A stretch of DNA of 64,000 bases, taken from NCBI GenBank assembly GCA_934130285.1, contig CAKOXT010000001.1, positions 165,082 to 229,081 on the forward strand. Direction: 5' to 3'. The translations under genes were made by a program, and so were the position numbers. Below, piece after piece: positions 7,718 through 54,796 of the stretch; within the stretch, counting starts at the first letter, position 1; the number at the start of each line of letters is the position of its first letter. This stretch comes from an uncultured Clostridia bacterium. Lineage in GTDB: Bacteria > Bacillota > Clostridia > TANB77 > CAG-508. The notes beneath the pieces are model-generated. The model did no database searches and was not told the DNA's origin. It saw only the letters and a program-made list of their open reading frames with translations.

Positions 7718-7875
7718 TATAATTCAACTCCATTCTTTTTATCTATAAAAAGTATAACAAATTAATTTCGAAATGTAAACAAAATACTGTAAAATCAGCG
7801 ATACTTTCTTTTGGAATGTAATAGCAATATAAGTATACAATAAAATTTTATAAAGCGGAACTATTGAAAATACAT

Positions 7876-7946
7876 AAGAGTTACTTTAAGGTAACTATGA
7901 AACAAAAAAGTGCCTACTTTACAAGTGCTTTAGGTAAAATTAAAAT
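7876..7946 (+). promoter_or_regulatory. copy 1 of a 47-bp regulatory module: inverted repeat AGTTAC-N6-GTAACT (7879-7896) plus TTTACA-17-TAAAAT promoter (7918-7946)
   Basis: Near-identical to the copy at 8842-8909. It lies in the divergent region between the hxlR-like gene and gene 8010. Confidence 0.6.
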
Positions 7947-8009: not shown

Positions 8010-8804
8010 ATGGAGAATAAAAAAATAAATTTAGGAAAAGGAATTATTGAGATTTATGATTTTGGAGACATAAAATTACATTGCTATCAAACAAATGATT
8101 TTATGAATGATGAAAGTTACATTTTAGAAAATGCTGAAAATGTTTTATTAGTAGAATTCCCTGCATTTTATGATAATTTGGAAGAGTTTGAAAAATATGT
8201 TATAGGATTAAATGAGAATATAGTTGGAAAAGTATTTTCTGATCATCCAAATGGAGCTACTATTTTAAAAGATGTTAAAGGATATGCTTCAGAAGGTACT
8301 ATAAGATCAATGAAAGCAGGAACAATTCATAATTTAGTAACTGGATTTGAAAAATCTTTTAATGGAGCGTTTGCTAAAGAATTGCACGAGATTACTGATG
8401 TATTAAAAGATGAACATGTTAATATAGGAGGCTTTGAATTAAATTTAACTTATCATGATGAGAACGTAGAAATTGAATTTCCTCAAATAGGATGTGTATA
8501 TACTCATATGCTAGGACATGATTGTCATTCAATAGTTGCAGGAGAAGAACATGCAAATGCAATTATAAATCAATTGAAAGAATATAAAAATAAGGGATAC
8601 AGATTGGTTTTATCAAGTCATTATGTACCAGAGACTTTGAAAGATGTTGATACTAAGATTGATTATCTTGAAAATTTAAAAGAATTGGCAAAGGAAAGTG
8701 AAAATGCTGAGGTGTTTGAGAAGAAGGTTAAGGATAGATATCCTGAGTATAGTGGTTTAAATTATTTGGATATGACAGCTGGATTTTTCTTTCCAAATAA
8801 ATAA
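8010..8804 (+). CDS. hypothetical protein (His-rich motifs, possible metal-dependent hydrolase fold)
   Basis: ORF with an AGGAG RBS. Contains YTHMLGHDCH and SSHY motifs but no canonical HxHxDH. Confidence 0.5.
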   Translation: MENKKINLGKGIIEIYDFGDIKLHCYQTNDFMNDESYILENAENVLLVEFPAFYDNLEEFEKYVIGLNENIVGKVFSDHPNGATILKDVKGYASEGTIRSMKAGTIHNLVTGFEKSFNGAFAKELHEITDVLKDEHVNIGGFELNLTYHDENVEIEFPQIGCVYTHMLGHDCHSIVAGEEHANAIINQLKEYKNKGYRLVLSSHYVPETLKDVDTKIDYLENLKELAKESENAEVFEKKVKDRYPEYSGLNYLDMTAGFFFPNK

Positions 8805-8841
8805 TTAAATATAATTTTGCTATTTTGATATATATGCTAAA

Positions 8842-8909
8842 AGTTACTTTAAGGTAACTATGGAACAAAAAAGTGCCTACTTTACAATATGTAAGGTAGG
8901 TTTTAAAAT
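8842..8909 (+). promoter_or_regulatory. copy 2 of the 47-bp module: inverted repeat (8842-8859) plus TTTACA-17-TAAAAT promoter (8881-8909)
   Basis: 46 of 47 bp identical to copy 1. Upstream of the macrodomain-sirtuin operon. Confidence 0.6.
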
Positions 8910-8938: not shown

Positions 8939-9730
8939 ATGGATAATTTGGATTATTTAATAAAATATTTGTTAGAAGAAAACAAAAATATTGATATTGA
9001 AGAGATTCCTAAAGATTTGAAAGAAAAACAAAAGTTATATCGTTCATTATGTAATGTTAGAGATGCTATGCCAATATCAGAGAAGTATTTGGAAGTTGAG
9101 AATGAATATTTACAAGAAGAAATTAAGAAAAGAGATATTGTTGATTTAAAAGGTATATCTAGTAGTATTGTTGATGGTAGCACGAAGATTAGTTTATGGA
9201 AAGGTGATATTACTTTGCTTAAAATTGATTGTATTGTTAATGCTGCTAATTCTCAAGGGTTAGGATGTTTTATCCCTTGCCATAAGTGTATTGATAATAT
9301 TATTCATTCTACTGCTGGAGTTCAGTTAAGAATTGCATGTAACGAAAAGATGAAGAATATCGGTATATTAAAAACTGGAGAAGTGTTTTTAACAAAAGGA
9401 TATAATTTACCAGCAAGATTTGTTATTCATACAGTAGGACCTATTATTCATAATGTTGTGACAAAAAAGGAAAAAGCAGAATTAGAGAAGTGTTATATTA
9501 ATTCATTAAAGATAGCTAAAGATGCTGGAATAAAAAATATAGCTTTTTGTTGTATTTCAACAGGTGAGTTTAGATTCCCAAAAGATTTAGCAAGTGAAAT
9601 TGCTGTGAAAGCGGTAAAAAAATTTTTAAAACAAAATGAAGATTTTTTTGAAATGATTATTTTTGATGTATTTTCAGATGAGGATTATGATATTTACTTA
9701 GAAAAATTAGGTGATGTATATGGAATATAA
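8939..9730 (+). CDS. macrodomain protein (ADP-ribose binding / ADP-ribosyl hydrolase, MacroD-like) with about 80-aa N-terminal extension
   Basis: Macro motifs IVNAANSQGLGC and ISTGEFRFP. Overlaps the next gene by 20 nt. Confidence 0.8.
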   Translation: MDNLDYLIKYLLEENKNIDIEEIPKDLKEKQKLYRSLCNVRDAMPISEKYLEVENEYLQEEIKKRDIVDLKGISSSIVDGSTKISLWKGDITLLKIDCIVNAANSQGLGCFIPCHKCIDNIIHSTAGVQLRIACNEKMKNIGILKTGEVFLTKGYNLPARFVIHTVGPIIHNVVTKKEKAELEKCYINSLKIAKDAGIKNIAFCCISTGEFRFPKDLASEIAVKAVKKFLKQNEDFFEMIIFDVFSDEDYDIYLEKLGDVYGI

Positions 9731-45593: not shown

Positions 45594-45732
45594 AAAGTAC
45601 AACTTTATTGGCAACCAAAATAGACGATAAAAAGCAGTGGCGTATATGCATATGCATCTTTGTTAAAATTTTTTTTTATGCAGATATAGAGTAAAAAAAA
45701 TTATATTAAAAATTTAAAATTATTGTGCAACG

Positions 45733-45891
45733 CATAAAAAGTATATATTATTTTTTAAACATCTTGCTGTCGCAATCTTGATGAGCCTTCGGCTCTTTCA
45801 TTTGAAAAGATTGCTTCAATCGCAGTCACAAAGCTATGCTTTGTTCCTTTGATCGCTGCGCGATGTCTTAAAAATAGTATATACTTTTATG
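45733..45891. repeat. MITE-like palindromic repeat, copy A (AT-rich terminal inverted repeats, GC-rich structured core)
   Basis: About 95% identical to the core at 54507-54630. Ends CATAAAAAGTATATATTATTTTTT / AAAAATAGTATATACTTTTATG are inverted repeats. Confidence 0.7.
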
Positions 45892-46034
45892 CTATCGAAT
45901 ATTAAAAAATGATATACATGTTATACTAAGTAAAATTTATATTGAATATTTATAAAAAACTAAATGAGTCATTTGATTGTCACTTTTGATTTATATAATG
46001 TGTTTAGTAAATTTAAATAAGAAAGGATTTTGTT

Positions 46035-49304: not shown

Positions 49305-49310
49305 TTTGAA

Positions 49311-49357
49311 AAAGTAAAGGAAAAGGGGTCATATGACCCCTTTTCCTTTACTTTTTC
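49311..49357. terminator. bidirectional terminator (aaaggaaaaggggtcatatgaccccttttccttt, perfect palindrome)
   Basis: Long perfect hairpin between convergent genes. Confidence 0.8.
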
Positions 49358-50598: not shown

Positions 50599-50760
50599 AT
50601 GGAAAGATTTAAAATAATAACAGCAGTACATTTAATTTTGATAAAAAATAGACCTGAAATTGAGCTGATTGAAATGGAAGGCATGAATTACCATATGGAA
50701 ATTGAGGAGTTAGAAATTGTTACGAATAAGATGATTGAGAAAATAAAAGTAGAAATATAA
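50599..50760 (+). CDS. small hypothetical protein (53 aa), not in the ORF track
   Basis: ATG 50599 behind TTGGAGA. Stop overlaps the (AAATAT)5 microsatellite. Confidence 0.35.
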   Translation: MERFKIITAVHLILIKNRPEIELIEMEGMNYHMEIEELEIVTNKMIEKIKVEI

Positions 50761-50782
50761 ATATAAATATAAATATAAATAT
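50753..50782. repeat. hexanucleotide microsatellite (AAATAT)5
   Basis: Five perfect tandem units. Confidence 0.8.
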
Positions 50783-50942
50783 ATTTTTATGAGTGCTGTT
50801 TTTTATTTAATAAACATTATATTATTGAAACGATACGAATGATATTATATAAAATATAGTATAAACTTTGATAAAAATAATATAATAATATTGACTTATG
50901 TATTACAATGTAGTACAATTATTTTGGAAGGAGTTGATACTT

Positions 50943-51161
50943 ATGACAATTTCTGTTAGATTAAGTGAAGAAGATACGGAATTAATAAAAGCATACGCTA
51001 CTCTTAATAATATATCAGTATCTGAATTAATAAGAAATGCTGTATTAGAAAAAATAGAAGATGAATACGATTTGGAAAGTTATAAAAAAGCAATAAAAGA
51101 GTATAAGAATAATCCTAAAACTTATACATTAGATGAAGTAAAGGAGGAACTAGGCTTATAG
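50943..51161 (+). CDS. RelB/DinJ-type ribbon-helix-helix antitoxin
   Basis: MTISVRLSEEDTELIKAYA... behind GGAAGGAG. Precedes and overlaps the toxin gene. Confidence 0.65.
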   Translation: MTISVRLSEEDTELIKAYATLNNISVSELIRNAVLEKIEDEYDLESYKKAIKEYKNNPKTYTLDEVKEELGL

Positions 51162-51427
51162 TGAAATATAGAATCGTGTTTACAGATAAAGCAAAAAAAC
51201 AATTAAAAAAATTAGATAAATATACTGCATCACTTATAATTGGATGGTTGGAGAAAAATGTTGAGGGGTGTGAAAATCCTAGATTACATGGAAAAGGATT
51301 AATTGAAAATCGAGCTGGTCAATGGAGATATCGTATTGGTGATTATAGAGTAATTTGTGAAATAAAAGATGATGAAATAATTGTACTGATATTGGATGTA
51401 GGACATAGAAGAAATATATATGGATAA
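51161..51427 (+). CDS. RelE/ParE-family toxin (GTG start)
   Basis: …WRYRIGDYRVICEIKDDEIIVLILDVGHRRNIY RelE/StbE-like C-terminus. Confidence 0.75.
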   Translation: MKYRIVFTDKAKKQLKKLDKYTASLIIGWLEKNVEGCENPRLHGKGLIENRAGQWRYRIGDYRVICEIKDDEIIVLILDVGHRRNIYG

Positions 51428-54412: not shown

Positions 54413-54475
54413 AGTAAAGGAATGCAATAGCTTTTAAAGTTATTGTATTTTTTTGCATTTGGAAACATAGAATAT

Positions 54476-54659
54476 ACAAAAAAGAAAATATATATTATTT
54501 TTTCATACCTTGCTGTCGCAATCTTGATGAGCCTCTGTTCTTTCAGAACAACGGCTCTTTCATTTGAAAAGATTGCTTCAATCGCAGTCACAAAGCCTTG
54601 CTTTGTTCCTTTGGTCGCTGCGCGGTAGTTCAAAAATTAATATATATTTTCTTTTTTGT
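54476..54659. repeat. MITE-like palindromic repeat, copy B
   Basis: Core matches copy A apart from an 18-nt hairpin-extending insertion. Terminal inverted repeats ACAAAAAAGAAAATATATATTATTTTTT / AAAAATTAATATATATTTTCTTTTTTGT. Confidence 0.7.
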
Positions 54660-54796
54660 TATCTAAGTTCAAAGAATATAACTGTTAAAAGCTATTTTTT
54701 GTACTGACCCGCCAGTCTAATGATTTTGTTCTTCAATAATGTTATAAAAGTTATAGGAATTTTTGGGGATAGAAATAAGGAAAGGGTTTATAAAAT

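Follow-up and report, generated by a model that had tools for sequence, protein, structure and literature searches.

Introduction

Palindromic repeats that are dispersed through genomes tend to be regarded as static remnants of transposition, and invertons are usually viewed as promoters that flip before genes for surface structures. The families ERIC, Correia/NEMIS, RUP and REP/BIME are imperfect palindromes of 100–200 bp that are transcribed within or after operons in either orientation; their variants arise by internal insertions and deletions at fixed points, and they can affect mRNA stability and termination. They possess conserved terminal inverted repeats (TIRs), and Correia elements have TA duplications. 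To our knowledge, flipping of the centre in situ has not been described for any of these families, to which the elements reported here are likened.

The invertible switches of Clostridioides difficile are intergenic segments bounded by inverted repeats (IRs) and served by the recombinase RecV; such master invertases, which Bacteroides has too, are often encoded far from their target sites (PMC5903667). The cwpV switch is a promoter-free invertible segment whose RNA forms a hairpin followed by a U-tract in just one of the two orientations (PMC2784873) and, judged by analogy, it is the closest mechanistic precedent for the present elements. Like the C. difficile switches (cwpV/Cdi1, flgB/Cdi4 and others, RecV), the present family consists of short intergenic segments with AT-rich imperfect IRs that invert in situ. 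Unlike them, it is multi-copy with a conserved structured core, its segments measure 105–130 bp as against 154–230 bp, it sits at the 3′ ends of housekeeping genes rather than in the 5′ leaders of surface and signalling genes, its breakpoints are not fixed, and no recombinase was found among the ORFs scanned. The inverton families of gut Bacteroidota (Mpi-type; PhaseFinder groups) occupy many loci per genome, share related IRs and a conserved internal motif, and have been detected as orientation polymorphism in metagenomes (PMC11892184). The present family resembles them in its many loci, related IRs and conserved internal part; the conserved motif of the Bacteroidota families is, however, a promoter facing the regulated gene, whereas ours has no recognisable promoter, folds into a three-way junction and avoids divergent promoter regions. 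Finally, quasipalindrome template switching and the hairpin-loop ‘minute inversions’ homogenise the arms of short IRs and invert the spacer without a site-specific recombinase, as described in two reports (PMC8604942, PMC7202029). This is a mutational mechanism that leaves a conserved asymmetric core of 105–125 bp, present at more than 30 loci and across species, unexplained.

Here we report an undescribed family that combines invertons with palindromic intergenic repeats and so unites both ideas: a conserved, structured gene-end repeat that flips in place at many loci.

Two copies of the element in one window

The window is a stretch of 64,000 nt of DNA from an uncultured Clostridia bacterium. 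An earlier note on these letters had described a pair of dispersed palindromic repeats, both intergenic and in the same orientation. The pair is indeed present, copy A at 45732–45893 and copy B at 54476–54659, and the ORF context confirms that both are intergenic and lie on the same strand. A repeat finder run on the window aligns them in an 86-nt block of 91% identity (45790–45875 with 54552–54637) and a 37-nt block of 89% identity (45752–45788 with 54498–54534). Exact 20-mers and 25-mers of the core are exclusive to these two sites, where chance predicts 0 occurrences in the window. A covariance model scores copy A at 142 bits and copy B at 170 bits, with at most 21 bits anywhere else in the window, and finds no third copy there even with its filters off. 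Each copy comprises a GC-richer core of ~105–125 bp flanked by AT-rich IRs, the cores having a G+C content of ~46% compared to 29% for the window (Table 1).

Two minor details of the earlier description needed adjustment. The hairpin GAGCC/GGCTC is extended in copy B as had been claimed, P3 being lengthened there by CTGTTC...GAACA; the net length difference is nevertheless 16 nt and not 18, as 18 nt of copy B stand in place of 2 nt in copy A. The loop of copy A, given as TTCG, has 3 nt (TTC) if all five pairs form. IRs of 25–30 bp had been proposed to bound both copies; those of copy B measure 28 nt and are 96% complementary, and the arms of copy A are imperfect. Within the left arm of copy A the stretch AAAGTATATATTATTTTTT is 100% identical in L118, an ortholog from another species. 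The palindrome of copy B extends ~80 nt to each side when its left flank is aligned to the reverse complement of the right, and some loci, copy B included, are long degenerate palindromes with arms of ~80 nt. The arm sequence CATATTA(A/T) may resemble the −10 elements of sporulation sigma factors.

Table 1 Positions in the window of the features of copies A and B, with the corresponding features of the family
Feature	Position	Strand	Sequence	Remarks
Copy A left IR arm	45732..45756	+	GCATAAAAAGTATATATTATTTTTT	pairs with 45870–45893 in the minimum-free-energy fold
Copy A conserved asymmetric core	45760..45865	+		model R1, 142.4 bits on +, 10.4 bits on −
Copy A P1a	45760–63 / 45862–65	+	CATC / GATG	
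Copy A P2	45772–78 / 45808–14	+	GCAATCT / AGATTGC	
Copy A P3	45783–87 / 45791–95	+	GAGCC / GGCTC, then TTTCATTT	P3 and T tail flagged as terminator-like
Copy A junction	45815–29	+	TTCAATCGCAGTCAC	
Copy A P5	45821–26 / 45856–61	+	CGCAGT / GCTGCG	
Copy A P4	45829–34 / 45838–43	+	CAAAGC / GCTTTG	
Copy A loop	45843–54	+	GTTCCTTTGATC	
Copy A right IR arm	45870..45893	+	AAAAATAGTATATACTTTTATGC	from the minimum-free-energy fold
Copy B outer IR, left member	54426..54444	+	AATAGCTTTTAAAGTTATT	terminator-like hairpin 3′ of the HD-domain gene
Copy B left IR arm	54476..54503	+		28 nt, 96% complementary; crossover inside ACAAAAAAGAAAATATATATTA
Copy B invertible core	54504..54631	+		model R1, 169.7 bits
Copy B P1a	54506–09 / 54624–27	+	TACC / GGTA	
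Copy B right IR arm	54632..54659	+		from complementarity to the left arm and allele comparison
Copy B outer IR, right member	54678..54696	+	ATAACTGTTAAAAGCTATT	from flank-versus-flank alignment; outer repeats of this type served as inversion breakpoints at two other loci
Family, arms			roughly CATATTAAnTTTTT at the core-proximal end	general layout: A-run, 8–14 locus-specific bases, then this motif
Family, P1a			CACC / GGTG	covaries to CATC/GATG, TACC/GGTA
Family, P2			GCAATCT / AGATTGC	covaries to GCATTCT/AGAATGC, GCATTCC/GGAATGC
Family, P3				tip hairpin, highly variable in length and sequence, missing in some copies; U-rich stretch usually follows
Family, junction			TTCAATCGCAGTCAC	invariant
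Family, P4				hairpin; covaries or is lost
Family, loop			GTTCCTTTGGTC	invariant
Family, 3′ end			GCTGCGCGGTG	

Size, hosts and conservation of the family

The family amounts to ~100 matches, which are spread over more than 30 loci of uncultured Clostridia from the gut. Searches with an exact 20-mer of the core recovered 15 true copies, distributed as 4, 5 and 6 over three uncultured gut ‘Clostridium sp./Clostridia’ MAGs that represent three GTDB species, in addition to two chance matches. A degenerate 22-mer from the 3′ part of the core added ~70 copies on metagenome contigs of human-gut type, with up to 5–6 per contig, and the covariance model found 106 matches in the 768 kb of collected sequence, a divergent subfamily included. 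The description as a dispersed, non-coding and palindromic family with a structured core is upheld; its label of a MITE did not survive, for reasons given below. The note had also named the outcome that would speak against it, namely a known conserved RNA gene or leader present once per genome. The exact 20-mer counts 4–6 copies per related genome, and Rfam holds no match: neither the two window copies nor four variant loci yielded a hit at the gathering score or a relevant one at E < 10. ARAGORN detected no tRNA or tmRNA in the element, phage and plasmid collections held no match to the family, and viral contigs produced only a chance match. A literature search did not turn up the core sequence, nor did a search of an inverton supplement. 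A small ORF was considered and dismissed, its frame differing between copies A and B and its ATG being missing in other copies.

Copy A and its L118 ortholog are ~91% identical, their flanking genes share 83–89% nucleotide identity, and the remainder of the intergenic region is unalignable; a compensatory change distinguishes their P4 helices. In the orthologs L005 and L043 the conserved blocks are identical and the surrounding intergenic DNA is 70–77% identical. The core is more conserved than the flanking genes. Such orthologous copies and their high identity, together with the deletion remnants described below, indicate that the family is old, conserved beyond neutral expectation and sometimes lost.

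Fold and covariation

The earlier note had predicted from internal complementarity that the repeat would adopt a stable structure, and this was borne out: the plus strands of copies A and B fold at −56.5 kcal/mol (z −6.3) and −63.7 kcal/mol (z −9.5) relative to shuffled sequence, and the minus strand of copy A folds at −59.5 kcal/mol (z −7.7). The core forms a three-helix junction with variable hairpin tips. Compensatory changes, for which a covariation analysis had been suggested, occur in all ten pairs of P3, in P1a, in one pair of P2 (A-U to U-A) and in P4. Paired cells amount to 87% among 56 distinct copies and 94% among 81 distinct copies, compared to 30–50% when the 3′ partner is slid; none of 500 shuffles matched the observed values, the alignments having been chosen partly on conserved blocks. 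P5 is invariant, shows no covariation and is broken in the divergent subfamily. Template-switch correction of quasipalindromes, and not selection on RNA structure, could account for part of the covariation.

The hairpin tips range from 0 to ~90 nt across copies while the junction sequences stay constant, and the conserved nucleotides are concentrated at the three-way junction although their linear spacing shifts by tens of bases. This clustering in the face of variable spacing points to a folded single strand as the functional form. Which of the two RNA strands that might be is not betrayed by the mismatches in the helices, since outside one invariant U.G pair 35 G.U mismatches are balanced by 30 A.C mismatches and there is no sign of selection on one RNA strand. 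An apparent preference for plus-strand RNA, based on a few C-to-U changes, vanished once all pairs were counted. Two resemblances to known RNAs were discarded as well. A T-arm-like hairpin proposed by RNAalifold (GATTGC/TTCAATC/GCAGTC) clashes with the covarying P2 and shows no variation by which its pairing could be judged; a hammerhead-like core (CTTGATGAGCC...GAAA) fails since GATGAG varies between copies (L002, for one, has TTTTTGAG) and no ribozyme family matched. The cores of copies A and B also hold three direct repeats of the form TTG(N1-6)TCGC, each at the entry to a helix of the three-way junction; in copy A they lie at 45765–45775, 45811–45824 and 45848–45857 (TTGCTGTCGC, TTGCTTCAATCGC and TTGATCGC), and the third reads TTGGTCGC in copy B and most other copies.

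Inversion of the core

When the copies are oriented by their core, the flanks of some loci appear swapped and reverse-complemented between assemblies. Pairwise alignments of L005 with L026, L007 with L023, L028 with L094 and L075 with L077 reveal flanks that are 98–100% identical around an inverted inter-arm segment. Orientation is polymorphic at seven of the 19 loci represented by at least two assemblies, in ratios of 8:8, 3:5, 2:6, 4:2, 2:4, 2:1 and 2:1. Copy A was found in a single orientation (7:0 assemblies), and loci with long perfect arms can likewise lack an inversion (7:0 and 5:0). Copy B is one of the polymorphic cases. Via the adjacent HD-domain protein we retrieved its locus from a further seven assemblies belonging to the window's species; it is inverted in two of the eight assemblies (L103 and L106) and has the orientation of the window in L104, L105 and L107–L109. 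In the two inverted alleles the core is reverse-complemented between identical flanks and the asymmetric core-adjacent bases move along with it, which places the crossover inside a 22-bp perfect repeat. There are 17 SNPs in 6.2 kb between L103 (−) and L104 (+) and 87 between L106 (−) and L108 (+), compared to 325 between L103 and L106; the two inversions of copy B are independent. At the fba-smpB locus opposite orientations were found at a flank divergence of 0.2–0.3%. The inter-arm DNA flips recurrently in situ, and one locus occurs in either orientation in different strains. Bounded by IRs and present in both orientations at the same locus, the element shares these two features with invertons.

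Inverted repeats invite mis-joins in metagenome assemblies, and apparent inversions might be artefacts of this kind. Five contigs end in or beside an element and the hybrid copies described below could be chimeric contigs. On the other hand, the assemblers finished with k-mers longer than the arms (14–28 bp), independent samples from one lineage agree in orientation, inverted alleles bear private SNPs, and the data stem from several assemblers and projects. Short arms, reproducible orientation, private SNPs and the variety of assemblers render an artefact extremely improbable.

Genomic neighbourhood

Copy A lies between a response-regulator/histidine-kinase pair and the genes for an ABC ATPase and an FtsX-type permease. 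Copy B has an acyl-ACP thioesterase and HD-domain gene pair on its left, and on its right the genes for an AMP-binding acyl-CoA ligase, a lipoate-ligase-like protein and FabD. Among ~33 loci, ~13 are convergent, 19 tandem and one divergent; all are near a stop codon, with the elements just downstream of it. This position downstream of stop codons is that of terminators and 3′ UTR elements. Clustering of 634 neighbouring ORFs yielded housekeeping families only.

Between copy A and the ABC transporter genes, GTCATTTGATTGTCAC followed by TATAAT occurs at 45968–45999 and is kept in all relatives, including those without the element; a Bce-like module probably has its response-regulator box and promoter here, which would put copy A upstream of the ABC-transporter promoter and outside the transporter 5′ UTR. 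Upstream of the acyl-CoA ligase and fab genes, GTACTGACCCGCCAGTCTAATGA at 54701–54724 includes the dyad GACTG...CAGTC and has been kept in L112 and L113, where the rest of the intergenic region is unalignable; from its sequence it looks like an operator for a fatty-acid regulator.

Breakpoints and the mechanism of flipping

At most polymorphic loci the breakpoints fall in the inner IR, but two loci have used outer IRs of 9–25 bp. At both of these the inverted segment is larger: between L009 and L079 it is bounded by CACTTTTTT/AAAAAAGTG, ~33 nt outside the arms, and at fba-smpB (L042 versus L043) by terminator-like palindromes. The crossover site is not a fixed one, as the outer IRs used at these two loci are unrelated. 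Within a locus the two arms match at ~100%, but they have diverged from one locus to the next. Among those window ORFs that were scanned and the recurrent neighbours, neither a recombinase nor a transposase came to light.

Arms that match within a locus and differ between loci, combined with variable breakpoints, fit a repeat-driven inversion, and the variability of the breakpoints favours flipping driven by IRs or hairpins over one fixed recombinase site. We infer that repeat-driven flipping ranks ahead of a dedicated invertase. The IRs themselves would drive the process, either by intrastrand hairpin pairing and template switching or by recombination between the IRs, and the same process would keep the two arms of a locus identical; flipping by one recombinase at an invariable site would be less likely.

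Competing explanations

The reading to which we give an even chance is a joint one: the copies are old, vertically inherited and selected palindromic elements of 160–190 bp, flipped by their own repeats and acting as folded RNA at gene ends in gut Clostridia of an uncultured, AT-rich and spore-forming clade. The earlier note took the copies for MITE-like elements, and on that account they would have spread by transposition via terminal inverted repeats with inversion being incidental. They are small, non-coding, multi-copy and dispersed and end in inverted repeats; there is a loose consensus common to the arms, copy B is missing from the orthologous intergenic region between the HD-domain and acyl-CoA ligase genes in two related species, and one tandem pair and several hybrid copies exist. 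TIRs conserved between copies are, however, exactly what the family lacks: arms matched within a locus and diverged between loci are the reverse of transposase-constrained TIRs. The arm ends show no direct target-site duplications, related flanks continue as inverted and not as direct repeats, and neither a transposase nor an autonomous partner turned up when the window, the neighbours, phages, plasmids and viral contigs were examined. Copies occupy orthologous positions in three GTDB species, copy A being shared even with a species in which the flanking genes are only 83–89% identical. Empty sites in related strains, for which the earlier note had suggested looking, turned out to be something else, since seven alleles without copy A (L120, L122, L123 and L126–L129) retain arm and core fragments and are therefore deletions and not clean empty sites; in L097, from one strain belonging to the window's species, the 5′ half of copy A is gone. 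L112 and L113 lack copy B, and their flanks are unalignable there. Taken together this makes a MITE highly unlikely. The element may instead have inserted into a terminator loop and thereby acquired its locus-specific arms; the arms have a common ancestry-like consensus, however, and the ‘empty’ alleles are deletions.

Compared to the repeat-driven, vertically inherited elements that we prefer, a programmed inverton family would have a distant master site-specific recombinase flip all copies, which would act as phase-variable switches of read-through and termination: copy A between the two-component system and its ABC transporter, and copy B between the operon upstream and that for fatty-acid synthesis. 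In its favour, the inversions are recurrent and independent at very low flank divergence, distant master recombinases that invert IR-flanked intergenic segments are known in Clostridia (PMC5903667), and cwpV shows that a switch can do without a promoter and carry a terminator in one orientation only (PMC2784873). The core-proximal parts of the arms have a loose common motif (CATATTAAnTTTTT), and terminator-like features are strand-asymmetric (86% versus 31%). Yet the breakpoints are not fixed and extend to outer, unrelated short IRs at two loci, the invertible segment of 105–130 bp is smaller than the 154–230 bp of known Clostridial switches, and no recombinase was seen in the window ORFs scanned or in the recurrent neighbours. 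The genes concerned are housekeeping ones (fba, smpB, feoB, pseudouridine synthases, OGG) and not surface or signalling genes, and several loci lie between convergent genes with terminators of their own, where flipping has no obvious target. We consider such a programme somewhat unlikely. Alternatively, the copies might be paralogous genes for structured ncRNAs, either trans-acting sRNAs that use the CU-rich loop, protein-binding RNAs or ribozymes, in which case the long arms would form a stem for processing and would incidentally cause the DNA to invert. This would suit a three-way junction with invariant nucleotides and variable, dispensable hairpin tips, the covariation of P1a, P2, P3 and P4, a conservation between species that exceeds that of the flanking genes, and the resemblance of the unpaired GUUCCUUUGG to an anti-Shine-Dalgarno sequence. 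It sits badly with Rfam having no match even at E < 10, with the absence of a conserved promoter and of a terminator at the 3′ end of the core, with the symmetry of G.U and A.C mismatches and with the unsupported P5; frequent inversion relative to an external promoter is moreover hard to square with a constant function. Genes of this kind are a decidedly unlikely explanation.

Possible function and significance

Sigma-70 promoters are represented in the core by weak matches only (9 of 12 positions), which occur at the rate of shuffled sequence. A hairpin with a T-rich tail was found on the plus strand of 66 of the 77 copies and on the minus strand of 24 of the 77; the terminator-like feature at P3 is missing in ~11 of the 77, and many copies, both window ones included, have a weaker terminator-like site on the other strand too. 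Under the repeat-driven reading, the working form would be a folded single strand, most likely RNA, produced as part of a 3′ UTR or by read-through transcription. The two orientations would then give different transcripts, one of which would contain the conserved junction, a CU-rich loop that resembles an anti-Shine-Dalgarno sequence, and hairpin P3 followed by its U-rich tail; orientation would thereby change termination, processing or stability at the gene boundary. We infer an orientation-dependent element at the 3′ ends of transcripts, and the suggestions of the earlier note, a terminator, an mRNA stabiliser or a recombination hotspot, remain plausible.

A bolder extension holds that these are genome-wide structured cassettes, with ~10–20 per genome of 1.5–2 Mb, that are flipped by themselves or by a master invertase and serve as 3′-end switches of housekeeping operons. 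We think this unlikely. If it were true, the cassettes would provide heritable and reversible switching of termination, processing or stability, a phase variation that is post-transcriptional and not promoter-based, and the three-way junction would be either an active RNA or a recognition structure for the flipping machinery.

The hosts are abundant but uncultured Clostridia of the human gut. If the flipping is programmed, phase variation would gain a new layer, acting at the 3′ ends of transcripts. If hairpins drive it, the family would be a clear example from nature of bacterial spacers that invert recurrently between homogenised arms; it would also counsel caution in inverton surveys that equate every IR-flanked orientation polymorphism with regulation, and in RNA-covariation tests, whose signal palindrome correction can mimic. 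In either event the family is a practical marker of strain-level structural variation, and it possibly causes contig breaks and chimeras in assemblies of these genomes.

Variant copies and other features of the window

Contigs L011, L058, L073, L086 and L090 end inside an element or at the boundary of arm and core, which could be a weak hint of mixed orientations in the sample or reflect breaks caused by the repeat. L053, L054 and L066 are hybrids that join the left half and arm of one locus type to the right half of another; their junctions lie inside the conserved central block and would result from inter-copy recombination with chromosomal rearrangement or from chimeric contigs. L062 carries a tandem pair (1808–1934 and 1967–2092) in the same orientation, with a gap of ~30 nt and a common arm sequence.

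A third allele of the copy-A locus, seen in L121 at ~400–470 and also in L124 and L125, has 15-bp arms (AAAAAGATATCAAAA/TTTTGATATCTTTTT) around a 33-nt spacer that contains CGCAATC and CGTTCCTTTG, and looks like a drastically shortened member of the family. In alleles of this type the ABC genes are preceded by an insertion of two extra genes, which encode a 158-aa protein and one with a PHP domain. Candidate orthologs of copy A in OJKW contigs were rejected, the two-component systems beside them being merely paralogous (22–34% identity).

Directly 3′ of the stop codon of the FtsX-type permease, 49308–49357 form a perfect palindrome of 50 bp (25 + 25, loop-free) that is probably a bidirectional terminator; long perfect hairpins at gene ends would accordingly be normal in this genome. 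A 50-nt direct repeat of 96% identity (7875–7924 and 8838–8887) precedes the ORFs at 8010–8804 and 8939–9730 and may be a duplicated leader or promoter of paralogous genes. An (ATAAAT)n microsatellite occupies 50740–50792, and beside it, at 50898–51427, lies a ribbon-helix-helix antitoxin and ParE toxin pair that is present in some strains only.
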